A stretch of 64,000 nucleotides of DNA from an uncultured Actinomycetota bacterium (GTDB lineage Bacteria > Actinomycetota > UBA4738 > HRBIN12), in contig CAVTTD010000017.1 in assembly GCA_963737525.1 (NCBI GenBank), forward strand, positions 515-64,514. Reading direction: 5' to 3'. The notes beneath the pieces were generated by a model, which had not been told where the DNA came from, searched no databases, and saw only the letters and a program-made list of their open reading frames with translations. This document shows, piece by piece, positions 593 through 49,346 of this stretch. Made by a program: the position numbers and the translations under genes. The first letter of the stretch is position 1; every line of letters begins with the position of its first letter.

Positions 593-830
593 AGGCCGTG
601 TACCTCCTGTTGTGGGCGGCGCCCTCGTGGCGCCGCGGCTGCGGGAGGCGGCGGGGCCGGTTGTCAGTGGTGGGCCTCCGGTTCGTGGTGCTGGCGCTGC
701 GCGGGATCCTGGGCGCGCGCTGTCCGGGGGTCCGCGACTGAGAACCGACCGTGATGGGGCTCCTCCGCCTCCGATGGTCGGTCAGTGGGTCGTTCGCATC
801 ACTCCTCTTCGGGGCTCCTGACGCTTCCGG

Positions 831-1100
831 TCAACGACGCAGCCCGAGCTTCGCGATGAGTGCCCGGTAGCGCTCGATGTCCTCACGCTTGATGTACTCC
901 AGGAGCCTCCGCCGCCGTCCCACCATCTTGAGCAGACCCCGCCGGGACGCATGGTCCTGCTTGTGGGTCTTCAGGTGCTCGGTGAGCTCAGCGATCCGTT
1001 GGGTCAGCACCGCGACCTGCACGTCGGCAGATCCCGTGTCGCCGCTGGAGAGGGCGTGCTCCTGGATGATCTCGTGCTTGGCTTCTTTGGTCAGCGTCAT
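831..1100 (-). CDS. rpsO: 30S ribosomal protein S15
   Basis: 89-aa [60 protein letters not shown]... is a classic S15 sequence. Confidence 0.95.
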
Positions 1101-2489: not shown

Positions 2490-2520
2490 CGCCGCATGGT
2501 CCCACCTCTACGATGTCCGT

Positions 2521-3195: not shown

Positions 3196-3198
3196 AGC

Positions 3199-4140
3199 TC
3201 AGTCCTCGGCGAGGTCGACCGCCGCGCGCGTCCGCTCGACGTCCTGCCCGATCGCCGCCACGAGGTCGTCGACGGCGTCGAATCTGATCTCGTCGCGCAG
3301 GCGCTCCCAGAACTCGACCGTGAGCGTGTCGCCGCGGAGCTCGTCGTCGGGGAAGGCCAGGAGGAACGCCTCGACATGCAACGGCTCCGTCCCGAACGTC
3401 GGATTCGTCCCGACGTCGATCGCCGCCACATACCGATCGCCGTCCTCGAGCTGCGCGACGCCGGCGTAGATCCCCTGGCCCGGGAGCAGGAGCCGAGGCC
3501 AGGTGCGGAGGTTCGCGGTCGGGTAGCCGAGGTCCTTTCCGCGGCCCGCACCGGCTACGACCTCCCCGTCGACGGCGAACCGACGGCCGAGCCCGGTCCG
3601 CGGCCATAAGAGGTCGCCCGCGCCGAGCGCTGCCCGGATCGACGACGAGGAGACGACCCGGTCGTCGATCGCGAACAGGCCGACGTCGTCCGCGGTCATG
3701 CCGAGCGGCTCACCGACGTCACGCAGGGTCGCCACGGTGCCGGCGGCGCGATGTCCGAACCGGAAGTCGGCCCCCACTCGGGCATGCACGGCATGCAGTC
3801 CCCCCACGAGCACGTCGCGGACGAAGTCCTCGGCCGAGACCTCGGAGAACCGCTGCGTGAACTCGAGCACGACCAAGACGTCGATCCCACAGGTCGCGAT
3901 CAGCTCCGCCTTGCGCTCCACGGTGGTCAGCAGGCGCGGTTCCTCGCCCGGTGTGAGGATCTCTCGCGGATGTCGATCGAAGGTCACGGCCACGCTCCGC
4001 GCGTCCCGCTCCTTCGCTGCTTCGACGGTCCTCCGGATGACCTCCTGGTGACCCAGATGGACCCCGTCGAAGAAGCCGATCGTCACGGCCGACGGGCCGT
4101 CGGGCAGCGGGAGAGCGTCGAGGCCCCGGACGACGTCCAT
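3199..4140 (-). CDS. ribF: bifunctional riboflavin kinase / FMN adenylyltransferase
   Basis: 313 aa with N-terminal FAD-synthetase motif GFFDGVHLGHQ and a C-terminal riboflavin-kinase domain (GRGKDLGYPTANL...). Confidence 0.93.
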   Translation of the reverse strand: MDVVRGLDALPLPDGPSAVTIGFFDGVHLGHQEVIRRTVEAAKERDARSVAVTFDRHPREILTPGEEPRLLTTVERKAELIATCGIDVLVVLEFTQRFSEVSAEDFVRDVLVGGLHAVHARVGADFRFGHRAAGTVATLRDVGEPLGMTADDVGLFAIDDRVVSSSSIRAALGAGDLLWPRTGLGRRFAVDGEVVAGAGRGKDLGYPTANLRTWPRLLLPGQGIYAGVAQLEDGDRYVAAIDVGTNPTFGTEPLHVEAFLLAFPDDELRGDTLTVEFWERLRDEIRFDAVDDLVAAIGQDVERTRAAVDLAED

Positions 4141-4180
4141 AGGCGTTGGAGGGTACCGGTCGGGCCAAGTCAGCGAAGCG

Positions 4181-5029
4181 TCAGAGGGGAGCGAGGATGA
4201 CCTGCGGCCGGGCCCGAGGCCCGTCGTCTTCGTAGACGCCGATCAGGCGACCGTCCGGTGCGAACACGCCGTACGGGCCGGTCAGGCCGGCGGGGCCGAG
4301 CGGCCTCCCGTGGGAGGCCGCGACGGCCTCGTCGGCATCGAGGTCGAGTCGGGGGAGGTGGCCGACCGCGGCATCCAGTGGTAGGGGCTCCGTGGCACCG
4401 TCCGGCGAGACGGCGTCATCGACCGCGTAGGGCCCGATCGCGGTGCGGCGGAGCGCGACGAGGTGGGCGCCGCACCCGAGTGCGGTGCCCACGTCGGCGG
4501 CGAGGACGCGCACGTAGGTCCCGCCCGAACACGTGACGCGGAACGTCGCGTCCGGTGCGTCGTAGGACACGAGATCGAACGCGTCGACGCGGACCGGGCG
4601 AGGCTCCGCCTCGAGCCGCTCCCCCTCCCGGGCGGCCTCGTAGAGCTTGCGACCACCGACCTTGACCGCGCTGTACGCGGGCGGACGCTGGAGCGAATCC
4701 CCCACGAGCGTGTGCATCACGTCGGTCAGCTGTGCTGCCGCGACGTCGACCGACGTCTCGGAGACGACGTCGCCATCGGCGTCGAGGGTGGTCGTCTCGA
4801 TCCCCAGCCGCATCGTCCCGTCGTAGGTCTTGGGCAGCGCCCCCAGGAAACGGAGCAGGCGGGTCGCTCGACCGACGCCGATCAGCAGCAGCCCCGTGGC
4901 CATCGGGTCGAGCGTCCCCGCATGACCGACCTTCCTCGTGCCGAGGCCCCGTCGCACGACGTCCACGACGTCGTGCGACGTCACTCCATGAGGCTTGTCG
5001 ACGAGGAGCAAGCCCTCTATCTGAGTCAT
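4181..5029 (-). CDS. truB: tRNA pseudouridine(55) synthase
   Basis: 282 aa; GLLLVDKPHGVTSHDVV...HAGTLDPMATGLL is the TruB catalytic-Asp motif. Confidence 0.93.
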   Translation of the reverse strand: MTQIEGLLLVDKPHGVTSHDVVDVVRRGLGTRKVGHAGTLDPMATGLLLIGVGRATRLLRFLGALPKTYDGTMRLGIETTTLDADGDVVSETSVDVAAAQLTDVMHTLVGDSLQRPPAYSAVKVGGRKLYEAAREGERLEAEPRPVRVDAFDLVSYDAPDATFRVTCSGGTYVRVLAADVGTALGCGAHLVALRRTAIGPYAVDDAVSPDGATEPLPLDAAVGHLPRLDLDADEAVAASHGRPLGPAGLTGPYGVFAPDGRLIGVYEDDGPRARPQVILAPL

Positions 5030-5055
5030 GGAGTCATCGCGCAGTCAGGGCGCCG

Positions 5056-6030
5056 TCACGCCCGCCCCAGCGCCTCGACGAGCTCCTCGATCGTGCCTTC
5101 CGGCCCGTGTTCGGAGGTGTACCCGGCCGCGAGGCGATGGCCGCCGCCTCCGAACGACGCCGCGACGGCAGACAGATCGTGCCCTCCTCGAGAGCGAACG
5201 CTCACCTTGAACCGTCCGTCCCGCTGCTGCTTCAGCACCGCGGCGACGTCGACGTCGCGCGCGGTCCTGAGCACGTCGATCAGGTCGTCCGTTTCGCCGG
5301 GCCCGACGCCTGCTTCCGCCAGATCCGCCTGCGTGATGTAGGTCCAGACGACGCTCGCCTCCGGCACCTCGGTCATCCTCCCGAGCGCCGTCCCGAGCAG
5401 GCGGAGGAACGAGGGGTCGTTGTCCTCGTACATCGCGCGAACGAGCGCGGCGTGATCGAAGTCCTGCTCCCGCAAACGTGCGGCGATCCGGAGCGTCTCC
5501 GGCGTCGTCGCCTGGTACTGGAATCGCCCGGTGTCCGTCACCAGGCCGGCGTACAGGCACACGGCGACGTCACGATCGAGCTCGCCGCCCATCGCTTCGA
5601 TCAGGCGGAAGACCATCTCGCAGGTGGACGACGCGTCGGGATCCACCACACGGACGGTGCCGTAGCCCTCGTTCGAGCGGTGATGGTCGATCCAGATCAG
5701 CTCGCCCGCACGTGAGGCTGAAGTCCCGAGGACCCCGAGCCGATCGAACGACGCGCAGTCGCAGGTCACCATCACCGCAGGCTCCGCGGGGAACGCGCTC
5801 GGGGAGACGACGTGCTCGCTCCCGGGCAGGAGCGACGCCCAGCGGGGCAGGTCGAGCGGCTCGTTCCCGTACGAGCACACCGTGCGGGTTCCTCTGGCGC
5901 GGAGGTGATCCGAGAGCCCGAGCATCGACCCGAGCGCGTCGGCATCCGGATTCATGTGACAGGCGAGCGCGACCTCGTCGGCCCCGGAAAGGACCTCGCC
6001 GGCTCGTCGCAGCGCCTCGGCCTCAGTCAT
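5056..6030 (-). CDS. nrnA: DHH-family phosphoesterase (NrnA-like oligoribonuclease / pAp phosphatase)
   Basis: 324 aa; DHH motifs (ALACHMNPDADALGS, WIDHH) plus a C-terminal DHHA1 GGGH. Conserved position between rbfA and truB. Confidence 0.85.
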   Translation of the reverse strand: MTEAEALRRAGEVLSGADEVALACHMNPDADALGSMLGLSDHLRARGTRTVCSYGNEPLDLPRWASLLPGSEHVVSPSAFPAEPAVMVTCDCASFDRLGVLGTSASRAGELIWIDHHRSNEGYGTVRVVDPDASSTCEMVFRLIEAMGGELDRDVAVCLYAGLVTDTGRFQYQATTPETLRIAARLREQDFDHAALVRAMYEDNDPSFLRLLGTALGRMTEVPEASVVWTYITQADLAEAGVGPGETDDLIDVLRTARDVDVAAVLKQQRDGRFKVSVRSRGGHDLSAVAASFGGGGHRLAAGYTSEHGPEGTIEELVEALGRA

Positions 6031-6380
6031 CCGATCCCTCCGCGATGGAGGCGAGCGATGAGCTCCTCGATGTGTTCGTACTGCGCGATCGTCTGGTCCA
6101 ACTGGAACTCGATCTCCGGCAAGGTCCGCAGGCGCACCTGTCGCCCGAGCTCCCTGCGGAGATGGGGGGTGGCCGAGCGCAATCCCGCACCCGTCGCCCG
6201 TTGCTGTTTCTCGTCCCCGAGCACCGTGTAGGAGACCCAGGCGCGCCGGAGGTCGGCGGTCACCTGCACGCCCGTGACCGTGACGAAGCCGATCCGCGGG
6301 TCCTTCAGCCGTTGGATCTCCTCGGCGAGGACCTCACGGAACTCCTCCGCCACGCGAGCTCTCCGAGCACCTTGAGGCAC
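6027..6380 (-). CDS. rbfA: ribosome-binding factor A
   Basis: 117 aa; RIGFVTVTGVQVTADLRRAWVSYTVLG is a typical RbfA sequence. Its stop overlaps the nrnA start as ATGA. Confidence 0.9.
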   Translation of the reverse strand: MPQGARRARVAEEFREVLAEEIQRLKDPRIGFVTVTGVQVTADLRRAWVSYTVLGDEKQQRATGAGLRSATPHLRRELGRQVRLRTLPEIEFQLDQTIAQYEHIEELIARLHRGGIG

Positions 6381-9162: not shown

Positions 9163-10419
9163 TCATTCCCCCGCCGGCGCCTCCGCTGGCGCGGCCTCGA
9201 CCTGCGTCTGGGGGACCGCGACCGGCTCGGCCAGCACGGGCTCCGCTTCCTCGGGCGTCGGCTCGGCGCCGGCGCCCGTAGCGACGTCTTCCTCCGTCGC
9301 CGCCTGAGGCTCCTCGGCCGCAACCACTTCAGCCGCCTCGTCGGGCGGCGGCGCAGAAGGCCTCGGCGCCGGCGAAGGCTCCGCCGCCTGGCTCTCGGAC
9401 TTGATGTCGATCCGCCATCCGGTCAGACGGGCCGCCAGTCGGGCGTTCTGCCCCTCCCTGCCGATCGCGAGCGAGAGCTGGTAGTCGGGGACGATCACGA
9501 GGGCGGTCTGCGTGTCGGGGTTGACCGTGACCTCCTTCACCTTCGCCGGCTGCAGCGCGTTCGCGACGAAGGTGGCCGACTCGTCCGACCACGGAACGAC
9601 GTCGATCTTCTCGCCACGGAGCTCGTTGACCACCATGCGCACGCGCGAACCCTTCGGTCCGACGCACGCGCCGACCGGATCGACGGCCGGCTCGTTCGAC
9701 GCGACCGCGATCTTCGACCGGTGTCCCGGCTCGCGGGCCACGGCCATGATCTCCACGATCCCCTCGTCGATCTCGGGCACTTCGAGCGCGAACAACGCCT
9801 TCAGCAGGCCCGGATGCGTCCGCGAGACGACGATCTGCGGACCCTTCGTCCCGCGACGAACCTCCGTGATGAATGCTTTGAGTCGCTCGCCATGGCGAAG
9901 CGGCTCCGACGGAACCTGCTCGCCCTGCGGAAGCAGTGCCTCCACCTTGCCGAGATCCAGCAACGTGTACCTGCGCTCCTGCTGCTGGACGATCCCGGTG
10001 ACCACGTCGCCCTCGCGTCCCGCGAACTCCTCGTAGGTCATCTCCCGTTCCGCATCTCGGAGCTTCTGGAAGATCACCTGCTTCGCCGTCTGGGCGCCGA
10101 TCCGTCCCTTGAAGTCATCCGTGACCTCGACCTCGGCCTCCGAGATGACCTTCATCTCGACCCCGGGCTCCTCGCTGCCCTCGGCCGGCGGGGTATCGAT
10201 CTCTTCGAGCTCCTGCTGCCACATACGAAGGTCGCCCGTCTCCGGGTCGATCACCGCGCGGAACCCGACGAACTCGTCGTTGCCGTCAGGGTGTTCCTGC
10301 TTCCAATGCGCCTTGTAAGCCGAGGCCATCGCCTCTTCCAAGCCGCCAAGGATCGTCTCGAAGGCGATCCCCTTCTCCCGCTCGAGCTCGCGCAGTGCGG
10401 CGATCATCTCGGCGTTCAT
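9163..10419 (-). CDS. nusA: transcription termination/antitermination factor NusA
   Basis: 418 aa with S1 and KH domains ([59 protein letters not shown]) and an acidic C-terminal tail. Confidence 0.95.
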
Positions 10420-11008: not shown

Positions 11009-12718
11009 CTACGGAGCGCTGCTGAGGAGGTCCTCGACCGCCTGTGAGGCGTCGGCCAGCGGAGCACTGGACCGTTCCCCCGTGGCACGGACCTTGAGGT
11101 CGACCGTGCCGCTCTCGAGGCCACGGGAGCCGACGACCACCTGGACGGGATAGCCCACGAGGTCGGCGTCGGCGAACTTGACGCCGGCCCGCTCCTCACG
11201 GTCGTCGAGGACAGCCTCGATCCCGCGCTCTCCGAGCTCTCGATAGATCCGCTCCGCCTCCTCCGTCACCACCGGCGCGTCGGCGTTGGCCATGATCACC
11301 GCGACCTCGTAGGGGGCGAGGAGCTTCGGCCAGATCATCCCGGCGTCGTCATGGTGCTGCTCGACCGTCGCCGCCATGATCCGGCTGATCCCGATCCCGT
11401 AGGACCCCATCACGTAGTGACGCTGCGATCCGTCCTCGGCTTGGTAGGTGGCCCCCAATGGCTCCGAATAGTTGGTCCCCAGCTGATAGATGTGACCGAC
11501 CACGATCGACCGCCCGATCTGCAGCGCTCCCCCGTCCACCGGGCATCGGTCGCCGTCGCGGATCTGGACGAGGTCCTCCCACCGATCGACCCGGAAGTCG
11601 CGATCGACATTGGCTCCCGTGACGTGGACGTCGACGCGGTTCGCGCCGGTGACCCAGTTGTTCCGTCCACGGACCGAGTGGTCCGCGAAGATCGTCACCT
11701 CCGGGCCGAGACCCTGCGGGCCGACGAAGCCTTTCGCGAAGCCCTTCGCCGCGAAGTCCTCGTCCTCGAAGCGGCGCACGCGCTCGGGGAAATGGAGGCG
11801 CGCGAGCTTCTCCTCTCCCACCTCGCGGTCGCCAGGGACCAGGGCGGCGACGGTCCGGCCCTCGACGTCGAACATGATGCATTTCAGGGTGGCCTCGGCC
11901 GGAACCCCCATCTGCTCCACCATCAGCTCGATCGTCACCGCGCCCGGCGTCTCCACCTCGGTCAGCGGCTCGAGGCCTTCCGCGGTCGCGGGGTCGGGCG
12001 CCCGGGGAGTGGCCGCCTCCGTGTCCGCGAGATAGTCGCCGTTCTCGCAGCGGACGAACAGATCCTCGCCCACGTCCGCCAGGGCCATGAACTCATGGTT
12101 GACGCTCCCCCCGATCGTTCCGGGGTCGGCCTCGACGATCACGTATTCGAGCCCGAGCCGGTCGAACACGCGCTGGTAGGCCTCGTACATCACGCGATAG
12201 GACTCGCGCATCCCGTCCTCGTCCCGGTCGAACGTGTAGGCGTCCTTCATCAGGAACTCCCGTGCACGGAGAAGCCCGAATCGGGGACGGAACTCATCCC
12301 GGTACTTCCATTCCACCTGGTAGACGTTGACGGGCAGGTCACGGTAGGAGGGGAACTCCTGCTGCACGAGGGGTGCCACGACCTCCTCCTGGGTGGGGCC
12401 CAGCAGGAACTCGCGTCCGTGCCGGTCCTCGAGGCGGAAGACCACGTCGCCGTAGGCCTGCCAGCGACCCGTGAGCTTCCAGGGCTCGGCGGGCAGGACG
12501 ATCGGCATGCGGAGCTCCTGGGCCCCGGATGCATCCATCTCCTCGCGAACGACCCGCGCGATCTTGTTCATCGTGCGGAGCCCGAGGGGCATCGAGGTGT
12601 AGATCCCCGCAGCGACCTTGCGGATGAACGCGGCGCGCAGCAGCAACCGGTGGGATGGGACGTCGGCCTCGGCCGGATCCTCCCGGAGCGTGCGCGCGAA
12701 CAGCCTGGATACCCGCAT
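11009..12718 (-). CDS. proS: prolyl-tRNA synthetase
   Basis: 569 aa bacterial-type ProRS with class II motifs (FRLEDRHGREFLLGPTQEEVV, MKDAYTFD, HVMGSYGIGISRIMA). Confidence 0.95.
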   Translation of the reverse strand: MRVSRLFARTLREDPAEADVPSHRLLLRAAFIRKVAAGIYTSMPLGLRTMNKIARVVREEMDASGAQELRMPIVLPAEPWKLTGRWQAYGDVVFRLEDRHGREFLLGPTQEEVVAPLVQQEFPSYRDLPVNVYQVEWKYRDEFRPRFGLLRAREFLMKDAYTFDRDEDGMRESYRVMYEAYQRVFDRLGLEYVIVEADPGTIGGSVNHEFMALADVGEDLFVRCENGDYLADTEAATPRAPDPATAEGLEPLTEVETPGAVTIELMVEQMGVPAEATLKCIMFDVEGRTVAALVPGDREVGEEKLARLHFPERVRRFEDEDFAAKGFAKGFVGPQGLGPEVTIFADHSVRGRNNWVTGANRVDVHVTGANVDRDFRVDRWEDLVQIRDGDRCPVDGGALQIGRSIVVGHIYQLGTNYSEPLGATYQAEDGSQRHYVMGSYGIGISRIMAATVEQHHDDAGMIWPKLLAPYEVAVIMANADAPVVTEEAERIYRELGERGIEAVLDDREERAGVKFADADLVGYPVQVVVGSRGLESGTVDLKVRATGERSSAPLADASQAVEDLLSSAP

Positions 12719-23687: not shown

Positions 23688-25263
23688 CTAGAACGCGATG
23701 AGGCGAAGCAGGAGAAGAGCCGCGGGCGCCACGAACAAGAGCGAATCGATCCTGTCGAGAACACCCCCGTGGCCGGGCAGGACGCTCCCCATGTCCTTCA
23801 CGCCGACGTCTCGCTTGATCAACGATTCGGCCAGATCGCCGAAGGTGGCCGCCAGCGAGACGACGATGCCGAGCAACACGGCGTTCAGCCGCCCGTCCAC
23901 GAAGATGCCCGGACCCGCGTCGACGAACGCGGTGACGAAGGCGGACGAAAGGATGATCGTCCCGAGCGAGGCCACGATGAGGCCTTCGATCGACTTCTTC
24001 GGGCTCGTGGCCGGGGCGAGCGGCCGCTGGATGAACGATCCCCCCCAGACGGAGCCGGTCAGGAACGCCAACGTGTCGAACGCGAACGTGAGACCGATCA
24101 CGGCGACCACGACGGAGGTCTCGAACGTGGTGAGGATGATCAGCAGCGAGCCCGCGAGCCCGGGGATCCAGAGCAACCCGAGCAACGTGAGTCCGATGTT
24201 CCCGGCGGTGTCCTTCCGGTGGGCCGCCGGAACCGTCATGTACCAGAGGAAGGTCGCCAGCACGCCGAGCGTCAGCATCGACAGGAGGCCGGCCTCGCCG
24301 TGGTAGTACGCGCCGGCGAGCATCAACGCGCCACTCACGAGTCCGACCGCCGTCGCGGGTTGGCGATGATGCTTCACCATCACCCCGATACAACTCACCC
24401 TGGGCCACGAGCGCGACGATGGAAGCGACGAGCGCGAAGACACCGTCGCCGATCAACAGGGCGACCAGCGCGACCCCCGCCAGCACGACGCCGGTCAGGA
24501 ACGCGGCGGGAACGTCGCGCTCGGTTCCCCGCCGGTCGAGGTCGGCTCCGACCTCGACGGCCGCCGGCTCCTGCCAGCTCGGACCGCCGAGTCCTTCGGC
24601 GCCGACGACGATCGTGCGGGCCGGTTCCTCCTCGGCCATCGCGGCGAAGACGTCCTCGTCCGCGTCGCCCGGTGGGTACGGCTCCGCGCCGAGCTCGTCC
24701 ATCAGGTCCGCGGCGTTCTCCTCGTCGATCTGGACGACGCGTGCAGCCGGCGCCCCGGCCCCTTCATCGCCAGCCGGTTCGGCGAAATGGGCCGCGGCTT
24801 CCTCCAACTCCTCGGCGGACGGCCGCTCATCCTCGTCCTCTTCCGCAGGCCACTCATCGGTCGCGGCCGGCCGCGCGAAGAGGTCTCCCTGGTCGTCGTC
24901 CGGCTGCTCCATCTCGGCGGCACGGACGACGGGCTCCTCGTCGGCATGGGCGTCGTCGCTGTCTTCGGCCGAGGCTCCGAGCGCCTGGTCGACGGGCTCG
25001 AGCGAGGCCGTGTCGTACCAGTCGGTCTCGTCTTCCTCGTCGTCGTCCTCGAAAGCGTCCGCGCCTCCGGGCGCTTCCGCGCCGGCTGGGGGGACCGAGA
25101 CCACCGCTTCGGGCTCGCTCCGCACGGACACGTGCTCCTCGCCCGGCGGTCCGCCCGCGGGCGCTGCGTCCTCCGACTCGTCCCACTCGACGTCCTTGAT
25201 CGGAGCGAAGAACTTGTCGAGATCCTCGAACAGATCGTCGCCCTCGTGCTCGTCGTCGGGCAC
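23688..25263 (-). CDS. cdsA: phosphatidate cytidylyltransferase with ~230-aa acidic N-terminal extension; one apparent frameshift
   Basis: GTG at 25263 overlaps the frr stop. D/E-rich low-complexity region, then the first TM AFLTGVVLAGVALVALLIGDGVFALV...AQGELYR. Frame switch near a C4 run at about 24381-24386. Remainder includes the signature GDLAESLIKRDVGVKDMGSVLPGHGGVLDRIDSLLF. Confidence 0.75.
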
Positions 25264-31260: not shown

Positions 31261-31331
31261 GAGAACGACGCTAGAAGGCCTCGGCGGCGCGCGCCGTGAA
31301 ACGCGTCACATCGACGCGGAGGAACCGTCGG

Positions 31332-42069: not shown

Positions 42070-43578
42070 ATGGCGATCACCGCCGAGAGGTTGAGCCGGT
42101 CGAGCGGCGGGCGAAGGATCGTCTCGATGGACGCTGGGCAACCACCTCTTCGGGCCACCTCCCTTCTCGGGCTGGGCGATCGCCTTCGGGCTGATGGCGG
42201 ATGTGCTGACGGACGGTCCTCCCGGGGTCGGCTTCCTCCTCACGACCACGTGGCGGCGCTCGGAGTGGCCCTCGTCGCACGCCCGAAAAGCCAAGCGATC
42301 GCGTTCCTGGTCGCCGGGGTCGCCCTGGTCTCGTTCACCGTCGTTCGCGCGAGCCCCGTGCTCGCGGGTCTCGACCTCCTCAGTCGGGATCGGCCTGTTC
42401 GCCCTCGCGGGCGCATTCGCCCGCGAGGGAAACGTCGTGCGGACGGGCGTGCGCGCCTACGTCGCCCGCGCCTTCGGATGGACGGCACGATCCCGGCTGC
42501 CGGAGCGTTCCTGCTTCGCCCACTCGGGAGGCTGGTCCCCGGTCGGCGTCCAACTGGTCCTCCCACGCGCGCTGCTGATCGCGCTCCCCGTCGGCATCGC
42601 CTTCGCCGTCCTGTTCGCATCGGCGGACGCGGTCTTCGCGAAGCTCCTGCGGACCCCGTTCGAACAGCTTCCGCTCGGCGAGATCCCGAGGCACATCGTG
42701 GTCGTGGCTGGCGGCGCCGCGGGGTTCTCGACGCTCGCTGTCCGATCCTCGGTCCCGATCCGGCTCGGCCGATCCGCGCAGCCCATCGAAGGAGGCGGAC
42801 TCCGTCCGGCCGACTGGATCTCTCTGCTCGCGACCGTCGACATCGTGTTCGCGTTGTTCGTCGGGGTGCAGCTGTTCACGTTCTTCGGCGGGCGACGGTA
42901 TGTCTCGGCGGTCACCGGCCTGACGTTCGCCGAGTACGCCCGCTCGGGGTTCTGGCAGATGCTCGCCGCGGCGACGCTCACGGGACTCGGTGATCACCGC
43001 CTCCTGGATCGGCGGACGCCCGGCGTCGAGCGGTCGAACGGACATCGTTCAAGATCCTCGCCGGCGTGCAGATCGCTCTGGCGCTCGTCGTCCTGGCGAG
43101 CGCCTTCCAACGCCTCGTCCTCTACGAGACCGAGTTCGGCTACACGTGGCCACGGCTGATCCCGCACGCGGCGATCCTGCTCACCGCGGCGTTGCTCGGG
43201 TGCGGCCTCGTCGCCATCCTCACGGGACGCACGGTGTGGCTCCCCACGGCTGCGCTCTGCCTCGGGCTCCTCACGGTGGTCGGACTCAACGTCCTCGACC
43301 CGGAAGCCTTCATCGCGGAGCGCAACATCGCCCGCGTCGCGCGTGGGTACGAACTGGACACGCGGGAGCTGGCTTCCCTTTCGGCGGACGCGGCCCCGGC
43401 CATCGCGACCGCGCTTCCCGAGCTGGATCCGCCGATCAGGCAGCAGGTGGCGCGGGACCTCTCGTGCCTTCGCGCCGAGCTCCGGAAGGGCGTGTCTCGC
43501 TTCGGATGGGCCTCGTTCAACGTGGCGCGCGACACCGCGCTCGAACGACTGGATGGGCTGCGACTTCCGCCGTGCTGA
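42070..43578 (+). CDS. DUF4173-family polytopic membrane protein; at least two apparent frameshifts, 5' end uncertain
   Basis: Family-typical segments [56 protein letters not shown] and [43 protein letters not shown], read across three frames. Joins near 42380-42400 and 43034-43045. Confidence 0.45.
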
Positions 43579-43599: not shown

Positions 43600-44271
43600 C
43601 TAGTGCTCGAGGTCAGGCCGGTTCCGATGCGTCTTCTCGAGTGCGGCGTCGGCGCGCCACCGCTCGATCGCGCCATGATCGCCAGAGAGCAAGACCTCGG
43701 GCACGGCCATGCCACGGTACTCGGGCGGCCGGGTGTAGTGGGGATGGTCCAAGGACCAGGGTTCCGCGAAGGAATCCCGCTCGTGGGACTCCTCCTTGCC
43801 GATGACGCCGGGAACGAGCCGGGTGACGGCCTCGATGACCACCAGCGCAGGGATCTCGCCGCCCGCGACCACGTAGTCCCCGATCGACACCTCTTCGGCC
43901 GGGAGCCCTTCGACGACCCGCTCGTCCACACCTTCGTACCGGCCGCAGAGGAGTGTCAGGTGTTCCTCCTCGGCGAGTTCTCGCACGAAGGCCTGGTCCA
44001 GAGGCCGTCCTGCCGGGGACAGGAGCAGCACACGGCCGCGGTCTGGATCCAGCGACTCGACCGCGGCGAAGAAAGGCTCGGGCTTCATCACCATCCCCGG
44101 ACCGCCGCCGTACGCCGTGTCGTCGACCATCCGGTGGCGATCGTCGGACCATTCCCGGAGGTCGTGCACCCGGACGTCGAGCAACCCTTCCGCGATCGCC
44201 TTCCCCAGGAGGCTCTCCCGCACAGGCCCTCCGAAGATCCCCGGGAAGATCGTGAACACGTCGATCCGCAT
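43600..44271 (-). CDS. trmD: tRNA (guanine37-N1)-methyltransferase
   Basis: 223 aa; MRIDVFTIFPGIF...DVRVHDLREW...VDDTAYGGGPGMVMKPEP...LLCGRYEGVDERV is classic TrmD. Confidence 0.93.
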   Translation of the reverse strand: MRIDVFTIFPGIFGGPVRESLLGKAIAEGLLDVRVHDLREWSDDRHRMVDDTAYGGGPGMVMKPEPFFAAVESLDPDRGRVLLLSPAGRPLDQAFVRELAEEEHLTLLCGRYEGVDERVVEGLPAEEVSIGDYVVAGGEIPALVVIEAVTRLVPGVIGKEESHERDSFAEPWSLDHPHYTRPPEYRGMAVPEVLLSGDHGAIERWRADAALEKTHRNRPDLEH

Positions 44272-44352
44272 CGAGCGAGGCTAGCAACGTTGCGTCCGCG
44301 ACCGCGTCGAGGCACGATGCGCCCGACCGGCCGCGGGCCGGACGGAGGAACG

Positions 44353-46632
44353 ATGACGCCGATCGTCCTGGTGGTGCTCATGTTCGTCGGGATCGTGATC
44401 GCCGTGGACACCGTGCGTCGGCGGAAGATCCGCATCGCGCGAACGATCGATCTCCAAGGGTGGGTCGCCGCGCGCCTTGCGGAACCGGGGCCGCCGGTGC
44501 TCACGGAGGCGCTCGCCTCGGCGTTGACGCGCGAGCCGCCGGTCCACGTGGATCTCTACGTCAAGCTGACCGAGTCCCTGGAGATCGCCAACCTGCGCCC
44601 TCGGCTGCGGGACGGGTGCGAGGTGAAGATCTTCCGGCTCCGCTGGGGGAACGACTTCGCGATGATCGCTCGCGACGACCGTGAGCTCCACTATCGGCTC
44701 GAGGTCTGGGAGGCGGAGCTGCTCCCGAAGCTGGACGGGACGAGGACCGTCGGTGATCTGGTCGTCGAGCGGATGGAAGCCGGTGGTGGGCTCGACGCCG
44801 AGCCGGTGACCGATCTCGTCGTGGCCTTGTACGGAGGCGGTTTCCTCGATCCCGCTCCCATCGCGACCAACGAGCTGATCGTGGACCGGCTCGATCCCTC
44901 GTCCCCGGGCCGAAAGAAGCTGACGCGGTTCGGCAAGACACTCTCGATCGAGTGGAAAGGCGCGGACCGTCTGGTCCGCTTCTGCTATCGGAACCTCCTG
45001 CGGCCGTTCTTCTGGTGGCCCGTCGCGCTCGTGTCCGGCCTCGTCGCGATCGCTGGGCTGGCAGCCTTCGTCGATGTCTATGCCTCCGGACGGTTCTCGA
45101 TCGGGGGGGAATCCGCCCCGACCGAGGCGGCGATCTTGCTCGCCCTCGCGTTCTTCCTGACGTTCATGCACGAGCTCGGGCACTCGGTCGTCATCTCCCG
45201 TTACAACCGGAAGGTGAAGGGCGCCGGCTTCATGATCTATTTCGGCTCGCCTGCCTTCTTCGTCGAGGCGACGGACAGCCTCATGCTCGAACGAAGACAG
45301 CGCATCCTCCAAGCTTCCGCCGGGCCGTTCACGGAGCTGATCATCGCCGGAGTGGCTTCGCTCGTGATCTTCGCTTCCCCAGACGGTCCGCTTGCGGACC
45401 TGCTCTACAAATTCGCGCTCCTCAACTACATCGTGATCTTCCTGAATCTCGTCCCCTTGCTGGAACTCGACGGCTACTTCATCCTCTCCGACCTGATCCA
45501 GGTCCCCGACCTCCGACCCCGCTCCCTTCAGTTCATCCAGCACGACCTGTGGCACAAGATCTCGTCGCGCGAACGCCTGACGCCCCAGGAGTGGGGTCTC
45601 GGGGGATACGGGTTCGCCGGGATCGCGTTCACGATCTTCTCCTTCTGGACGGGATTGTTCTTCTGGAAGGTGATCTTCTTGAATCTGGCCGTCGGTCTTT
45701 GGAACGGCGGCATCGGCTCGAAAGTCTTGTTGGTGCTGCTGGGCGCGTTCCTCGCTGGACCGATCATCCGCGGCCTGCTCACACTGACTCTCAGCCTCGT
45801 GAGGCGCATCAGGGGACTCGTTCGAGCGATCCGGTTCCGCCTCGAGACCACCTGGCGGGTCGAGGCGGCGGAGCTGATCGACGCGCTCCCGGCGTTCGAC
45901 GATCTTCCCGAGGATGTCCTCTCGGACCTCGCGGGGCGTGTGCGACTGCGGATCCTTCGCGCCGGCGAGCCGGCCTTCCGCCAAGGGGACCAGCCGGACG
46001 CCTTCTACATCGTGCGGCGGGGCACCGTGCGCATCGAGGACGAGGATCCGGAGACGAGCGCCACACGCATCATCCGGACGATGGGTCGGGGCGAATCGTT
46101 CGGCGAGATGGGGCTCCTCGGCGGGCGACGGCGCCAGGCGACCGTCCGGGCAGGGGACGACGTGGAGCTCTTCGAGGTGGACAAGGGCACCTTCGACCGG
46201 CTGCTCGCCGATGACATGCGCGCGCCTGAGTTCGGTCACACGATGCAGGCGCTCGCCGAGCTCCGGGAGCTCTCGGTCTTCCACGGGCTGGACTCCGAGC
46301 AGCTGAACGTCATCCTTGAACACGGGGAGTGGATCACTGCCGTCCACGGCGACGAACTCATCACACAAGGTGAGCCGGGAGACCGGTTCTACGTGATCGA
46401 GTCGGGACGGGCCGAGATCATCCGGGACGGGACCGGCCTCGACTCCGTGAGCAAGGGGATGTACTTCGGCGAGGTTGCCCTGCTTCGCGACGTCCCGAGG
46501 ACGGCCACGGTGGTCGCCTCCACCCCGATGCGTCTGTTCGCCCTCGATCGTGAAGGCTTCGAGCTCGTCGTCGCCGATGCCTTCCGGCGCGGTACGCTCC
46601 GCCCCGCCGCCGACCGCATCTGGCAGCACTGA
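44353..46632 (+). CDS. M50-family (site-2-protease-like) metalloprotease fused to two C-terminal cyclic-nucleotide-binding domains
   Basis: ATG at 44353 after GGAGGA. 759 aa.
- N-terminal TM MTPIVLVVLMFVGIVIAV.
- An about 200-aa domain of unknown type.
- M50 core with HExxH (FFLTFMHELGHSVV) and the S2P second motif (LNLVPLLELDGYFIL) amid TM helices.
- Two CAP_ED domains: FGEMGLLGGRRRQATVRA and FGEVALLRDVPRTATVVA. Confidence 0.75.
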   Translation: MTPIVLVVLMFVGIVIAVDTVRRRKIRIARTIDLQGWVAARLAEPGPPVLTEALASALTREPPVHVDLYVKLTESLEIANLRPRLRDGCEVKIFRLRWGNDFAMIARDDRELHYRLEVWEAELLPKLDGTRTVGDLVVERMEAGGGLDAEPVTDLVVALYGGGFLDPAPIATNELIVDRLDPSSPGRKKLTRFGKTLSIEWKGADRLVRFCYRNLLRPFFWWPVALVSGLVAIAGLAAFVDVYASGRFSIGGESAPTEAAILLALAFFLTFMHELGHSVVISRYNRKVKGAGFMIYFGSPAFFVEATDSLMLERRQRILQASAGPFTELIIAGVASLVIFASPDGPLADLLYKFALLNYIVIFLNLVPLLELDGYFILSDLIQVPDLRPRSLQFIQHDLWHKISSRERLTPQEWGLGGYGFAGIAFTIFSFWTGLFFWKVIFLNLAVGLWNGGIGSKVLLVLLGAFLAGPIIRGLLTLTLSLVRRIRGLVRAIRFRLETTWRVEAAELIDALPAFDDLPEDVLSDLAGRVRLRILRAGEPAFRQGDQPDAFYIVRRGTVRIEDEDPETSATRIIRTMGRGESFGEMGLLGGRRRQATVRAGDDVELFEVDKGTFDRLLADDMRAPEFGHTMQALAELRELSVFHGLDSEQLNVILEHGEWITAVHGDELITQGEPGDRFYVIESGRAEIIRDGTGLDSVSKGMYFGEVALLRDVPRTATVVASTPMRLFALDREGFELVVADAFRRGTLRPAADRIWQH

Positions 46633-46643
46633 AAGGGGAACGC

Positions 46644-46856
46644 GTGGATTGCTGGCACTGCCGCCGGACCGCCGTGGGGACCTGCCGATTCTGCGGTCGC
46701 GGCGTCTGCGAGGACCACGCGGAGACCCAGCCGTTCGTGCTCGAGCTGTTCCGGAGCAAGGACGTCACCCGCGCGCTCGTCGTGGAGGACGCGCTCTGGT
46801 GCGCGGCCTGCACACCTCGCCCGGACCCGGTGGACCTGCCGGAGCTCGATGCCTGA
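46644..46856 (+). CDS. small four-Cys zinc-ribbon protein
   Basis: GTG start 11 nt after the protease stop, with AAGGGG SD. 70 aa: (M)DCWHCRRTAVGTCRFCGRGVCEDHAE...LWCAACTPRPDPVDLPELDA, carrying CxxC-x7-CxxC-x4-C ... CxxC. Confidence 0.5.
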   Translation: MDCWHCRRTAVGTCRFCGRGVCEDHAETQPFVLELFRSKDVTRALVVEDALWCAACTPRPDPVDLPELDA

Positions 46857-46870
46857 CGTCCCGTTCCAGG

Positions 46871-46970
46871 TGTGACCTACGTCACATCCCGCGCCTGTTC
46901 CGCGTCACATCTCGCGGTCGTTGGGCGTCACAACGCTCCTGGTGACGAATGTCACCGTCTTCGCGTGACA
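46871..46970. promoter_or_regulatory. cluster of CRP/FNR-type boxes
   Basis: Perfect TGTGA-N6-TCACA (TGTGACCTACGTCACA, 46871-46886). GTCACA half-sites at 46904 and 46927. GGTGACGAATGTCACC (46941-46956). GTGACA at 46965, giving TGTCAC-N9-GTGACA. The cluster lies 14 bp after the zinc-ribbon ORF and upstream of the small basic ORF and the CRP-family gene. Confidence 0.55.
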
Positions 46971-47065
46971 CGCACCACCGACCGGCCGTGCCCGAGGCGA
47001 CATGATTCGGGTGTCGAAGAACAGGGCCCGACTCGGGCCCACGGACTCAGGAGGAGGACCCTGGG

Positions 47066-47200
47066 ATGGCGGACAAGAAGATCACTCCGAAGGCGGCAAG
47101 CTCCAAGGACAAGGCGTCGGGCGACCGCGCCGCGGCTCGCGTCTCGCTGAGGACCACCAAGCGGACGACCAAGCGGACCACCAAGCGGACCACCAAGTAG
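47066..47200 (+). CDS. 44-aa highly basic peptide with C-terminal (TTKR)x4 tandem repeat
   Basis: ATG at 47066 with strong SD AGGAGGAGGA (47049-47058). Translation: MADKKITPKAASSKDKASGDRAAARVSLRTTKRTTKRTTKRTTK. A hairpin GGGCCCG-ACT-CGGGCCC (47024-47040) precedes it and a terminator follows. Too short for the ORF track. Confidence 0.45.
   Translation: MADKKITPKAASSKDKASGDRAAARVSLRTTKRTTKRTTKRTTK
47153..47197 (+). repeat. 12-nt tandem repeat (ACCACCAAGCGG x3.75) encoding the TTKR repeats
   Basis: Units: accaccaagcgg / acgaccaagcgg / accaccaagcgg / accaccaag. Confidence 0.8.
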
Positions 47201-47231
47201 CAGGTCCGATCTTCGGACTGAACGTGATCGA

Positions 47232-47266
47232 GGACGGGCGCCGCAGGCGCCCGTCCTTCGTTTTGG
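47232..47266 (+). terminator. Rho-independent terminator after the small basic ORF
   Basis: GGACGGGCGCC-GCAG-GCGCCCGTCC (perfect 10-11-bp stem) followed by TTCGTTTTGG. Confidence 0.6.
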
Positions 47267-47301
47267 CTTGCACGAGGCAGCCGGGCTAGGCTCCTCTCGT
47301 C

Positions 47302-48003
47302 ATGCGAAGGGCCGACGACCTCCAGGTAGGCAAGGTGATGGCGGGCGCCCCGTTCCTCGAGCAGGTCCCGCACGAGGCCCTGGATCGGTTCGCCACGCAG
47401 GGCGCCGTCCACCGCTTCCGCCGGGGGACCTACCTCTGTCACCAGGGCGACCCGGACGGAGACGTCTTCTTCCTGGTATCCGGCCGGGTCGAGATCAGCT
47501 CCGAGACGGCCAACGGGAACAGGGTGTTGCACGCGACCTTGGATACCCCCGGGTTCGTCGGCGAGCTCTCGGCCCTCGGGAAGATGCCGAGGACCGCGAG
47601 CGTCCTCACCCTCGACGACTCGGACGTGTGGTCGACGGGGCCAGAGTCCTTCCTCGACTTCGTGACGGCCGAACCAGCCGCGTCTCGCGGCTTCCTCCAG
47701 GCGCTGGCCCGCCAGGTTCGGGAGCATCAGTCCTTCACCGACGACCTCCTGCACCTCGACCTGAAGGGCCGGCTCGCGAAGCGGCTCCTCCAGCTCGTGA
47801 CGCCCACCCTCGACGATCTTCCGAAGGACGGGGTACTCGTCCCGGCCGTCACGCACGCCGACCTTGCGAGCCTGTGCGGCGGCAGCCGGGAGAACGTGAC
47901 CCGCATCCTCACCGAGTGGCAGCGGCGCGGGCTCGTGGAGCGCGATGGGCATCGCTACGTCCTGAAGAAGGTGTCCGGCCTGGCGAAGATCGCCGACCTC
48001 TAG
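47302..48003 (+). CDS. CRP/FNR-family transcriptional regulator (CRP-like, no Fe-S cysteines)
   Basis: cNMP-binding domain (GDPDGDVFFLVSGRVEI...FVGELSALG...RTASVLT). C-terminal HTH with TGTGA-reading residues ADLASLCGGSRENVTRILTEW. Alternative start ATG 47338 (MAGAPFLEQ...) has a better SD. The stop shares CTAG with the rimM stop. Confidence 0.85.
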   Translation: MRRADDLQVGKVMAGAPFLEQVPHEALDRFATQGAVHRFRRGTYLCHQGDPDGDVFFLVSGRVEISSETANGNRVLHATLDTPGFVGELSALGKMPRTASVLTLDDSDVWSTGPESFLDFVTAEPAASRGFLQALARQVREHQSFTDDLLHLDLKGRLAKRLLQLVTPTLDDLPKDGVLVPAVTHADLASLCGGSRENVTRILTEWQRRGLVERDGHRYVLKKVSGLAKIADL

Positions 48004-48533
48004 TCCTGAGTCTCCTCTGGGGACTCTTCGGGCGCGGTGAGTCCCGGCACGTCTTTCACCACGATCGTTCGAGCGACGACGTCGACGTCGACGAGGAGGT
48101 CGGCGAGCGCCGGGACCAATGTTTCGTTCCCTTCCTCGTCCACGGCGACCCAGAGGTCGTTGGCTGGGTTCGGGATGACCTCCTTCACGATGCCGAGGAC
48201 GCGGCCCGACGCGGTCCGCACCTCGCACCCCTCGAGCTGGTAGGCCCACCACTCTTCGTCCGCCAGATCGGGCAGCCAGGACTCCGGGACGACGAGAACG
48301 GCACCACGGAGATCCTCGGCGGCGCTGCGATCCACGATCCCCGCGAACTTCACGATCAGTCGGCGGCCGTGGCGTCTGCTCGCTTCGATCGTGAGCGCGG
48401 CACCGTCTTCGCGGAGGACGGTGCCACCCGGCGCCCAGCGATCCGGATTGTCGGAGCGGTTCTGTACGGAGACATCCCCGCGAAGGCCGTGGACCCCTGT
48501 CACCACGCCGACGACGACGGTCGGCTCGTCCAC
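48000..48533 (-). CDS. rimM: 16S rRNA processing protein RimM
   Basis: GTG start 1 nt after the KH-protein stop: (M)DEPTVVVGVVTGVHGLRGDVSVQNRSDNPDRW... plus PRC barrel ...VLGIVKEVIPNPANDLWVAV. 177 aa. Confidence 0.88.
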   Translation of the reverse strand: MDEPTVVVGVVTGVHGLRGDVSVQNRSDNPDRWAPGGTVLREDGAALTIEASRRHGRRLIVKFAGIVDRSAAEDLRGAVLVVPESWLPDLADEEWWAYQLEGCEVRTASGRVLGIVKEVIPNPANDLWVAVDEEGNETLVPALADLLVDVDVVARTIVVKDVPGLTAPEESPEETQD

Positions 48534-48534
48534 C

Positions 48535-48765
48535 TCAGTCTTCGATGTCCACCATGGCGCCATGACCCTGGCGCTGCGCGGCCGCGCGGACGACGGTGCG
48601 GATCGCCTTGGCCGTTCGGCCGCCCCGGCCGATGACCTTGCCCATGTCATCCGGGGCCACCCGAACGCGATAGCGAGGACCACGCTCGTCGAAGGTTTCC
48701 TCGATGGAGACGGAATCGGGCTCGTCGACCAACTCCTGCACGAGGAACTCGACGAGATCCTTCAC
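48535..48765 (-). CDS. KH-domain RNA-binding protein
   Basis: 76 aa; [56 protein letters not shown]. Conserved rpsP-KH-rimM arrangement; ATGA overlap with rpsP. Confidence 0.8.
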
Positions 48766-49346
48766 GCGTCCTCCGTGTCGGACGTCTCGGCCGCAGGGAG
48801 TTCCTCGGCCTCGACCGGTGCCGTTGCCTCGGCCGGTGCCGCTTCCGTCGGCGACTCCTCCGCGGGTACGTCAGCGACGGCCTCGACCGCTTCGGCGGCA
48901 CCCGCCTCCGCGACCTCTGGCTCCGCGACCTCTGGCTCGGCGACCTCTGGCTCGGCCTCCACTGCGGGGGCTTCTTGAACGGTCGGCTCGGGTTCGGAGG
49001 CCGCGGCCTCAGCTTTCTGCTTGGCCTTCTTCGACAGCTTCGGCTTGGACGTCCGCTCTTTCGCGGGACCGGCGTCCGCCGACGGACGCTCCTTCACGAA
49101 CTCCTCCCAGATACCCACCTTCTTCATCAGGTTGCGGACCTGGTCCGAGGGTTGTGCCCCCACACGCAGCCAGTGCAGGGCCCGGTTCTGGTCGATCTCG
49201 ATCACGCTCGGATCGTCGAGCGGGTGGTACTTGCCGATGTTCTCGATGAAACGGCCGTCGCGGGGACTCCGCTGGTCCGCCACCACGACGCGGAAGAACG
49301 GGCGCTTGTTCGAGCCCATCCTCCGGAGCCGGATCCTGGTCGTCAT
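48762..49346 (-). CDS. rpsP: 30S ribosomal protein S16 with Ala/Glu/Pro-rich C-terminal extension
   Basis: [43 protein letters not shown]... then a repetitive (AEPEV)n tail. Confidence 0.93.

Follow-up and report, generated by a model that had tools for sequence, protein, structure and literature searches.

Four genes between trmD and rimM

The 64-kb stretch of DNA analyzed here (the window, whose positions are used throughout) belongs to a metagenome-assembled genome (MAG) of an uncultured Actinomycetota. It contains a minus-strand run of housekeeping genes, rnhB, lepB, rplS, trmD, rimM, a KH-protein gene, rpsP and ffh, in which four plus-strand genes, all intact, separate trmD from rimM. 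The four genes encode a membrane protease with two cyclic nucleotide monophosphate (cNMP)-binding domains, a small zinc-finger protein referred to as ZnR70, a basic repeat peptide referred to as pep44, and a putative regulator of the CRP family (Table 1). The first-pass annotation of this DNA had listed these items, and its coordinates and strands were accurate throughout when compared with the open reading frames (ORFs) and Pfam matches.

Table 1. Positions of the cassette features and of neighboring genes in the window
Feature	Position	Strand	Remarks
lepB	39970-41498	-	signal peptidase I, PF10502
bL19 gene (rplS)	41365-42294	-
DUF4153 membrane-protein gene	42194-43578	+	between rplS and trmD
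trmD	43600-44271	-	left flank, outside the module; PF01746, E 2.7e-63
Divergent intergenic region, trmD/protease gene	44272-44352		81 nt
Protease gene	44353-46632	+	759-aa membrane protein
RRE-like (PqqD-type) domain, putative peptide recognition	44620-44835	+	residues 90-161
HELGH	45169-45183	+	residues 273-277; zinc-binding and catalytic motif
NLVPLLELDG	45445-45474	+	residues 365-374; second M50 motif
cNMP-binding domain A	45910-46215	+	residues 520-621; cassette FGEMGLL...RRQATV
cNMP-binding domain B	46234-46590	+	residues 628-746; cassette FGEVALL...PRTATV
ZnR70 gene	46644-46856	+	70-aa Cys/His zinc-finger protein, soluble
CRP-type box array	46871-46979		upstream of pep44 gene, 23-24-bp spacing
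Perfect box TGTGAcctacgTCACA	46871-46886		site search
GTCACA half-sites	46904-46909, 46927-46932		site search
Box GTGAcgaatgTCAC	46942-46955		site search
Box GTGAcacgcaCCAC	46965-46978		site search
GC hairpin, 5' leader of pep44 mRNA	47024-47040	+	compensatory changes, modest support
Shine-Dalgarno sequence AGGAGGAGGA of pep44 gene	47049-47058	+	nearly invariant in alignment
pep44 gene	47066-47200	+	44-aa basic repeat peptide
Intrinsic terminator of pep44 gene	47230-47268	+	13-bp stem 47230-47258, then T-run
TAGGCT, -10-like element	47287-47292	+	9 nt before regulator ATG
CRP-family regulator gene	47302-48003	+	233 aa
rimM	48000-48533	-	right flank, outside the module; RimM (PF01782) and PRC_RimM
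bS16 gene (rpsP)	48762-49346	-

The protease and ZnR70 genes are closely adjoined, as had been noted for the Cys-rich mini-protein. ZnR70 starts 12 nt after the stop codon of the protease gene and has its own Shine-Dalgarno (SD) sequence, AAGGGGA. The divergent region between trmD and the protease gene is presumably the promoter of the protease/ZnR70 operon; the site search found no CRP-type box in it. The SD sequence and the terminator earlier ascribed to the pep44 gene were both located, and both are conserved. The rimM gene converges on the regulator gene with a 4-nt overlap (start codon checked). An Rfam scan of the whole window gave no match.

A search of one genome per GTDB species yielded 28 loci in uncultured Actinomycetota MAGs, with protease identities of 60–89%. 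In 25 of the 25 loci long enough to judge, minus-strand trmD is followed by plus-strand protease, ZnR70, pep44 and CRP genes and then by minus-strand rimM. L028, the most distant of the 28, keeps all four genes in this order but has them between rplS and trmD. Two still more distant relatives, L030 and L031, carry the genes in non-ribosomal surroundings. Thus the earlier description of an insertion into the trmD-rimM cluster holds for this clade and not beyond it, and the varied siting of the cassette implies no tie to ribosome function. The claim that the genes form a self-contained unit that travels together is borne out by the recurrence of the set in many uncultured soil Actinomycetota, other genomic contexts included.

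The arrangement could in principle be an artefact, either an assembly chimera or a set of chance ORFs in high-GC DNA. The assembly is indeed imperfect, as apparent frameshifts in the neighboring lepB and DUF4153 genes show; high-GC DNA yields many spurious ORFs, and a collection of 15 billion predicted proteins contains no exact copy of pep44. However, the cassette itself is free of frameshifts. The identical order in 25 other MAG loci, independently assembled, and in several metagenome contigs excludes the chimera that the first-pass annotation had allowed for. The ratio of nonsynonymous to synonymous polymorphism (pN/pS), 0.13 in ZnR70 and 0.29 over the 28 head codons of pep44, indicates purifying selection on both small ORFs. 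These ratios, together with the conserved SD sequences, terminator stem and operators, mark ZnR70 and pep44 as genes, and an artefact is hardly credible.

A foreign insertion was considered on the basis of base composition and rejected. The dip in GC content at 45000-45750 overlaps the part of the protease gene that codes for transmembrane (TM) helices, and because of this coincidence it gives no evidence of foreign origin.

The protease and its zinc-finger partner

From the N terminus, the protease consists of a TM helix, a domain resembling the recognition element (RRE) of peptides that are ribosomally synthesized and modified after translation (RiPPs), a six-TM M50 core, and tandem cNMP-binding domains. 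The Pfam profile search finds all three domains of the M50 protease with two cNMP-binding domains that had been described. Peptidase_M50 (PF02163) matches with E 2e-7 and 30.9 bits against a gathering cut-off of 27.2, a cut-off below which several relatives fall, and the two cNMP_binding domains match with E 2e-39. Conservation of the HExxH/LDG residues in homologues had been set as a test of the earlier proposal. In 35 homologues, down to 26% identity, H273, E274, H277, D373 and G374 are invariant, and in the same set conservation of N365 and P368 is 90% or more. By the M50 motif NxxPxxxLDG, D373 is the third zinc ligand. On these motifs and the profile match, the protein is assigned to the M50 family.

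Among the NCBIfam families, NF041824, that of the daptide intramembrane metalloprotease, scores best for the window protease and for six relatives (130–163 bits), and YydH/LiaK comes second. The window protease scores 156.9 bits (E 8e-46) between its residues 100–446 and model positions 15–350, with a cut-off of 300. The protein is therefore best classified by its sequence as a homologue of the NF041824 enzymes and not as an equivalog. Its type appears to be that of the RRE-fused RiPP-leader-peptidase branch of M50, not that of RseP or Rip1.

In the AlphaFold model of the protease (mean predicted local distance difference test, pLDDT, 79.5), residues 90–161 form three strands followed by three helices, the PqqD/RRE topology. 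A signature, MDGxRTVxEL...GFL, is conserved within these residues, and their counterpart in the daptide RRE-peptidase model is its N-terminal part. Direct matches to the PaaA RRE are weak, with E 0.086 in Pfam and E 0.081 to PDB 5ff5 with a profile of the N-terminal domain; the other matches of that profile to PDB sequences are spurious ones to designed beta-trefoil repeats.

Hydropathy identifies seven hydrophobic TM segments in the protease. Six of them lie between the RRE-like and the cNMP-binding domains, which would place both ends, and hence both kinds of domain, in the cytoplasm. The catalytic motifs are near the inner, cytoplasmic ends of their helices. Pfam finds no PDZ domain in the protein.

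In cNMP-binding domain A, G584 is invariant and E585 and R594 are nearly invariant. In domain B, F705, G706 and E707 are invariant and R716 is nearly so. The tandem arrangement matches that of PKG with E 3e-47 and resembles the tandem domains of PKA and PKG regulatory subunits. The phosphate-binding cassettes, as recognized from these residues, are kept in both protease domains and also in the regulator. The window protease and its relatives gave weak matches of 52–84 bits, all below the cut-off of 161, to TIGR03896 (cyc_nuc_ocin), a bacteriocin-type transport-associated protein that also has two cNMP-binding domains. In that family the tandem module is likewise tied to peptide processing or export, but it stands alone beside ABC/HlyD exporters and is not fused to a protease. 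Databases name the window protease "cyclic nucleotide-binding domain-containing protein" or "CRP-like cAMP-binding protein/Zn-dependent protease". Our literature search found no paper joining M50/site-2 proteases with cyclic-nucleotide domains; a prior computational mention is possible (Iyer et al. 2009, PMC3268129; Burroughs et al. 2011, PMC5938088).

ZnR70 has eight ligands, C3, C6, C14, C17, C22, H25, C53 and C56, which are invariant in the alignment and follow the pattern C-x2-C-x7-C-x2-C-x4-C-x2-H-x27-C-x2-C. Two zinc ions could be held by these eight ligands, cross-braced as in a B-box. The tail is conserved, acidic and proline-rich (PRPDPxDLPELD), and hydropathy gives no TM segment. Across the loci of the clade ZnR70 is 84–99% identical, compared with 51–80% for bL19 (rplS) and 60–81% for bS16, so that it outdoes its ribosomal neighbors in conservation. 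The N-terminal 27 residues alone match DUF2180 (PF09947), at 23.0 bits against a cut-off of 22.2, and there are weak matches to C5HCH and B-box models. The model of ZnR70 has a pLDDT of 80.6; a Foldseek comparison with the PDB gave no significant hit, the best being the C5HCH domain of NSD3 (E 0.63). The 511 homologues are all unnamed in their sources or named DUF2180, a family for which our literature search found no paper.

The pep44 gene, its operators and the regulator

The pep44 peptide contains 15 Lys and Arg among 44 residues and has no TM segment by hydropathy. It consists of a conserved N-terminal head of 28 residues, MADKKITPKAAxSKDKxxGDRAAARVSL, and a variable polycationic tail, which in the window is (RTTK)x4. 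Orthologues are present in 26 of the 26 related loci that extend that far, again with the head conserved and the tail variable. The tails differ in the unit and in the number of repeats (RQTK, RTHK, AKRVH, RSTRNT), and often close with KK followed by a terminal N, H, I, L or V. More distant relatives with other repeat units occur in L029–L031, L036 and L037, and a KKI(T)PK or KIKP head motif is common to the repeat peptides of these loci and of the window clade. Only 34 relatives are annotated anywhere, all as hypothetical, and gene callers largely miss the family. The division into head and tail has the look of a leader and a core. The pattern is that of a candidate precursor peptide.

Upstream of pep44, the CRP boxes that had been reported between the genes proved to be conserved CRP-type operators. 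Five perfect GTGA-N6-TCAC palindromes occur in the 64-kb window, where about 1.07 are expected. Two of the five lie at 46872-46955, within the 210-nt spacer between ZnR70 and pep44. The other three, at 9527-9540, 24088-24101 and 31296-31309, may be additional sites for a regulator of the CRP family. GTCACA and GTGACGAACGTCAC show no change in any of the 27 related loci aligned. Each of the 27 has four to seven boxes, with a constant phasing of 23–24 bp; in L005, for instance, the box centers are at -163, -140, -116, -93 and -70 from the ATG. A phased array of this kind is an unusual promoter architecture, which suggests cooperative or wrapped binding.

Downstream of the array come a conserved CAnGnT element, a GC hairpin and a strong ribosome-binding site. 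Three of the six hairpin pairs show compensatory changes, and the covariation score was reached by 2 of 500 shuffles, with the hairpin specified by hand; this local hairpin did not emerge from RNAalifold of the peptide leader. The terminator stem is kept across the alignment with covarying changes, as seen from a terminator scan together with the alignment. Behind the terminator, 26 of 27 sequences retain CTAGGCTCC. If the TAGGCT element serves as a -10 element, its distance from the ATG points to a leaderless or near-leaderless regulator mRNA.

The regulator matches PF00027 (cNMP_binding, E 1e-19), PF13545 (HTH_Crp_2, E 5e-15) and PF00325 (Crp, E 2e-6). These matches assign it to the CRP/FNR family, in agreement with the first-pass annotation. 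Its cassette reads GELSAL...PRTAS, and its recognition helix, RENVTR, has the form R-E-x3-R, which is consistent with TGTGA-type sites. It thus has in common with CRP/GlxR of Actinomycetota the fold, the cassette, the R-E-x3-R helix and an operator of the TGTGA-N6-TCACA type. However, its match to M. tuberculosis CRP (3d0s) reaches only about 77 bits and that to NF008732, whose cut-off is 266, 71.8 bits, a similarity too low for the organism's global CRP/GlxR. The low scores point instead to a dedicated paralogue which, unlike CRP/GlxR, acts on one promoter as far as seen, and does so through a phased array. For the CRP regulon proposed earlier, the evidence is limited to the peptide promoter. 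Within the clade the regulator is 88–97% identical, and its identity is 61% where that of ZnR70 is 84%.

Related loci and a proposed peptide-processing unit

A HMMER scan with the protease gave 722 cluster representatives with E < 1e-30. Among the matches are proteins of about 700 residues that cover the same span at 26–53% identity, and proteins of about 1100 residues in which an insert separates the protease core from the cNMP-binding domains. The neighborhoods of ten of the more distant family members were inspected. In all ten lineages the zinc-finger gene adjoins or directly follows the protease gene. The co-occurrence that the first-pass annotation had put to a neighborhood survey is therefore found: zinc-finger and CRP genes recur with the protease outside this clade.

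The nearest of these relatives, L029, is from a metagenome and has the same place and order as the window at a protease identity of 53%. In L030 (43%), genes for the protease, a 69-residue zinc finger, a 45-residue peptide and a CRP lie amid P450, dehydrogenase and methyltransferase genes. In L031 (39%), the protease and a 55-residue (RSTRNT)n peptide are encoded on one strand and the zinc finger and CRP on the other, the zinc-finger gene being translationally coupled to the CRP gene. Divergent from this zinc-finger/CRP operon, L031 also encodes a stand-alone cNMP-binding protein of 141 residues (11566-11991, plus strand), which is a third cyclic-nucleotide sensor of that locus. A protease and a zinc finger are seen in L035 (39%).

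L036 and L037 (38–39%) have a divergent upstream gene for a repeat peptide of 99 or 113 residues, and their zinc-finger gene overlaps the protease stop. In both, an MAKIKP or MARIKP head precedes five basic units of 13–14 residues, which are (NTNATTRKTRGxTx)x5 in the L036 peptide (302-601, minus strand) and (NHNESRQTRGLTG)x5 in the L037 peptide (137-478, minus strand). These longer relatives of the basic peptide look like multi-core precursors.

In L033 (33%, 1102 residues) the order is CRP, two Frankia_peptide (PF14407) genes, protease, zinc finger and the start of an ABC transporter gene, and a TGTGACggaggTCAC box precedes the two Frankia_peptide genes. Directly upstream of this cluster, at 942-6128, L033 encodes a single protein of 1728 residues of the Ser/Thr kinase, nSTAND NTPase and WD40 kind. 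In L034 (31%), Frankia_peptide genes lie directly upstream of the protease gene and a zinc-finger ORF starts directly downstream. Frankia_peptide is a predicted RiPP precursor family (PMC8939145, PMC12353581), and according to the former paper it originates with Iyer et al. 2009. L032 and the P0130 locus (33–37%) carry instead a gene for an extracytoplasmic function (ECF) sigma factor and one for a small HxxxCxxC protein resembling zinc-binding anti-sigma (ZAS) factors. In L032 (145-3435) the C-terminal half of the HxxxCxxC protein matches Frankia_peptide (E 9e-5), and the zinc-finger gene is next. The small protein would be an anti-sigma factor bearing a leader-peptide-like handle.

Thus the third component of the family varies among a basic tandem-repeat peptide, a Frankia_peptide RiPP-like precursor and an ECF sigma/anti-sigma pair. 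Its type follows protease identity to the window protein, with repeat peptides at 38–53%, sigma/anti-sigma pairs at 33–37% and Frankia_peptide at 31–33%, which in this small sample speaks for protease and substrate having evolved together. Usually the third member is a short protein that has a conserved part for recognition. CRP paralogues are frequent in the family and come with a matching box upstream of the peptide gene: a perfect box lies upstream of the peptide gene in every one of these loci that carries a CRP gene (L029, L030, L031 and L033), and in none that lacks one.

Given this gene content, we tentatively read the window locus as a cNMP-gated, leader-dependent peptide-processing unit with two sensors for one class of signal. 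This interpretation may well be correct, though we rate it slightly short of an even chance. The filling of the slot beside the protease by a repeat peptide, a Frankia_peptide or an anti-sigma factor makes a peptide-like third component the rule, and in the window the substrate of the protease would be a soluble cytoplasmic peptide.

The gene content, the conserved motifs and operators, the joint travel of the genes and the kinship of the protease are shown by the comparisons above, whereas the nucleotide, the direction of regulation, the substrate, and what becomes of the peptide product and what it does are inferred. In the proposed mechanism, cyclic nucleotide, on rising or falling, would be read twice, by the regulator and by the protease. 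The nucleotide-loaded CRP paralogue (the ligand is probably cAMP) would bind the phased array of TGTGA-N6-TCACA-type sites and switch the synthesis of pep44. The RRE-like domain of the protease would capture the conserved head of pep44 (KKITPK...RVSL), and the HExxH/LDG site near the cytoplasmic face would cut the peptide, separating the leader from the tail or cutting between the repeats. Binding of nucleotide to the C-terminal tandem domains would open or close access to the active site, in a way analogous to the CBS domain in SpoIVFB and the cNMP-binding domains in PKA, Epac and CNG (cyclic nucleotide-gated) channels. ZnR70, probably binuclear, would be an obligate, stoichiometric soluble subunit of the protease, acting as an adaptor or a gate.

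The earlier proposal of regulated intramembrane proteolysis under cNMP control is thus kept in part. Control of both transcription and proteolysis by cyclic nucleotide remains the natural reading, and the enzyme is not of the type that cleaves anti-sigma factors. Cleavage of a membrane anti-sigma factor, also proposed then, does not describe the window locus, because the protease has no PDZ domain, the locus has no sigma or anti-sigma gene, and neither ZnR70 nor pep44 has a TM segment. Nor is ZnR70 well regarded as the protease substrate, a role suggested for it at the same time; a protein more conserved than the adjoining ribosomal proteins is better read as an obligate partner.

A form of classical signaling proteolysis was also weighed, in which the cNMP-gated M50 enzyme would cut either ZnR70, then holding the CRP paralogue in check as its anti-factor, or a membrane anti-sigma factor encoded at another locus, and pep44 would be a mere target gene of the regulator set free. 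The constant company of ZnR70 and the protease would agree with this, as would the translational coupling of the zinc-finger and CRP genes in L031 and the operons that the distant L032 and P0130 proteases share with an ECF sigma factor and a ZAS-like anti-sigma factor. Nevertheless, no sigma or anti-sigma gene occurs in the window cassette or in its relatives L001–L031, ZnR70 is a soluble protein, and the protease has no PDZ domain. ZnR70 is also conserved over its full length in the manner of a structural subunit, at 84% where the regulator has dropped to 61%. Even in L032 the anti-sigma protein bears a Frankia_peptide-like domain, which indicates leader-type recognition and not site-1/site-2 logic. 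We consider this form of signaling rather unlikely.

The properties of the pep44 tail raise a further alternative, in which the genes have only their signal in common. The peptide would then be a CRP-controlled binder of ribosomes, nucleic acids or polyphosphate, of the stationary-phase type and never cut, and the protease and ZnR70 would act on other cellular substrates when cNMP rises, the genes clustering as parts of one cNMP response. Such a peptide would be comparable to SRA, a 45-residue basic protein of E. coli. The tail is polycationic and of low complexity, with a repeat period that varies (4, 5, 6, 13 or 14 residues), as is typical of binding driven by charge, and the L029 peptide has a weak histone-like HC2 match (E 0.029). 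Moreover, the pep44 gene has its own promoter, strong SD sequence and terminator, the cassette has no exporter, and the adjoining bL19 and bS16 bear long acidic tails. However, in four genomic contexts the peptide gene accompanies the protease/ZnR70 pair, and in L036 and L037 it stands divergently beside the protease gene with no CRP gene visible there. In other branches its slot is filled by genes resembling RiPP precursors, and the protease carries a domain of the peptide-recognition type. An uncut pep44 sharing no more than a signal with the protease is accordingly improbable in our judgment.

Several points count against peptide processing itself and should be stated together. ZnR70 could itself be the substrate of the protease. 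The RRE assignment combines weak matches (E about 0.08), a predicted topology and an alignment to a model below its cut-off. The tails (RTTK, AKRVH, RSTRNT) resemble nucleic-acid- or polyanion-binding tails more than bioactive cores. No similarity could be detected between pep44 and the Frankia_peptide leaders, so the equivalence of the two as substrates is argued from gene position alone. The sequence does not separate cAMP from cGMP or another cNMP as the ligand, and the array may activate or repress. Finally, the cassette contains no modification enzyme or exporter and is not a standard RiPP cluster; at most it would encode a ribosomal peptide processed by proteolysis alone.

Among known systems, the daptide and epipeptide peptidases are the closest to the proposed peptide-processing unit. 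In the daptide enzyme an RRE domain is fused N-terminally to a site-2 protease that removes the leader peptide (bioRxiv 10.1101/2023.03.08.531785), and the membrane M50 enzymes EpeP, TglG and TmoG also cut soluble RiPP peptides (PMC10885120). MpaP/DapP (NF041824) and YydH/EpeP/LiaK have the same order of an RRE-like domain followed by an M50 core with HExxH and LDG, although the resemblance to RRE in the window protease is weak (E ~0.08). They too lie beside short peptide genes with a conserved N-terminal part, and they act on soluble peptides at the cytoplasmic face, as is proposed for the window protease. The window protease differs from those of the described clusters in its tandem cNMP-binding domains, its extra N-terminal TM helix and the presence of ZnR70. 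Enzymes of the MpaB, MpaC, MpaD and MpaM types are absent, the cassette being four genes flanked by housekeeping genes. In contrast to daptide precursors, pep44 has no ELExMEAP leader, hydrophobic core or C-terminal Thr; it and its relatives are polycationic, with K, R, I, L, H or N as the last residue. Membership in the daptide clusters was rejected on the sub-cut-off score, the precursor signature and the enzymes.

Three reports (PMC11486902, PMC12632252, bioRxiv 10.1101/2021.07.09.451828) describe SpoIVFB as a site-2 protease for which BofA and SpoIVFA control the access of the substrate. In both SpoIVFB and the window protease, a cytoplasmic sensor of small molecules lies C-terminal to the site-2 protease core. 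The sensor in the window protease is a tandem cNMP module, and the N terminus is RRE-like. The CBS domain, which takes the sensor position in SpoIVFB, makes its activity ATP-dependent. The substrate of SpoIVFB is a membrane-tethered pro-sigma factor, unlike the one proposed here, and the partner here is a soluble zinc finger and not a membrane protein.

RseP and Rip1 have the M50 motifs in common with the window protease. The latter has no PDZ domain, site-1 logic or sigma/anti-sigma gene, and its predicted substrates are soluble, although some distant cNMP-fused relatives adjoin ECF sigma/anti-sigma pairs. An RseP/Rip1 type was rejected, since neither the PDZ domain nor an anchored anti-sigma factor with its sigma factor is found in the cassette and its orthologous loci. 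Pycsar anti-phage defence was also rejected. The PADLOC matches are confined to the cNMP-binding domain that the two have in common. No cyclase domain is present, the neighborhood consists of housekeeping genes, and the synteny of the cassette is stable across the clade.

The known outputs of cyclic nucleotides in bacteria are transcription factors, acetyltransferases, channels and defence effectors. If the proposed gating is correct, the direct control of a protease would be a new class of output for them. One locus would moreover offer a comparison, because the CRP paralogue reads the same signal at the level of transcription. The repeat peptides are almost all unannotated. It is possible, if on the whole somewhat unlikely, that the family at large is a second-messenger-gated protease widespread in Actinomycetota and relatives, composed of RRE, site-2 protease and tandem cNMP domains, with an obligate zinc-finger subunit and small-protein substrates that differ by branch and are processed in direct response to cAMP or cGMP, and with a CRP feed-forward loop added in the clade of the window. 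No earlier protease regulated by cyclic nucleotides would then have been described in bacteria, and the repeat peptides would constitute a new ribosomal family. The family joins RiPP-type leader-dependent peptidases and site-2-protease signaling, which are usually studied apart; in some of its branches there are sigma/anti-sigma pairs, and there the anti-sigma protein has a domain like a RiPP leader.

Some features of the flanking genes were also recorded. The bL19 protein has a very acidic C-terminal extension of about 87 residues, and bS16 has an Ala/Glu/Pro-rich acidic tail of about 120 residues with EPEVA repeats. A functional link between these acidic tails, flanking the cassette, and the polycationic peptide is pure speculation. 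The lepB gene is split across two reading frames, with profile positions 2–67 in an ORF running into rnhB and positions 66–168 in the overlapping ORF 40641-41498. As lepB is essential, an assembly indel is the most likely cause of its frameshift. The DUF4153 gene likewise consists of two overlapping ORFs in different frames, which match PF13687 positions 90–231 and 261–372. This split is probably a second indel error or a pseudogene; the L003 orthologue is in a single frame, and the gene is missing from some of the related loci.

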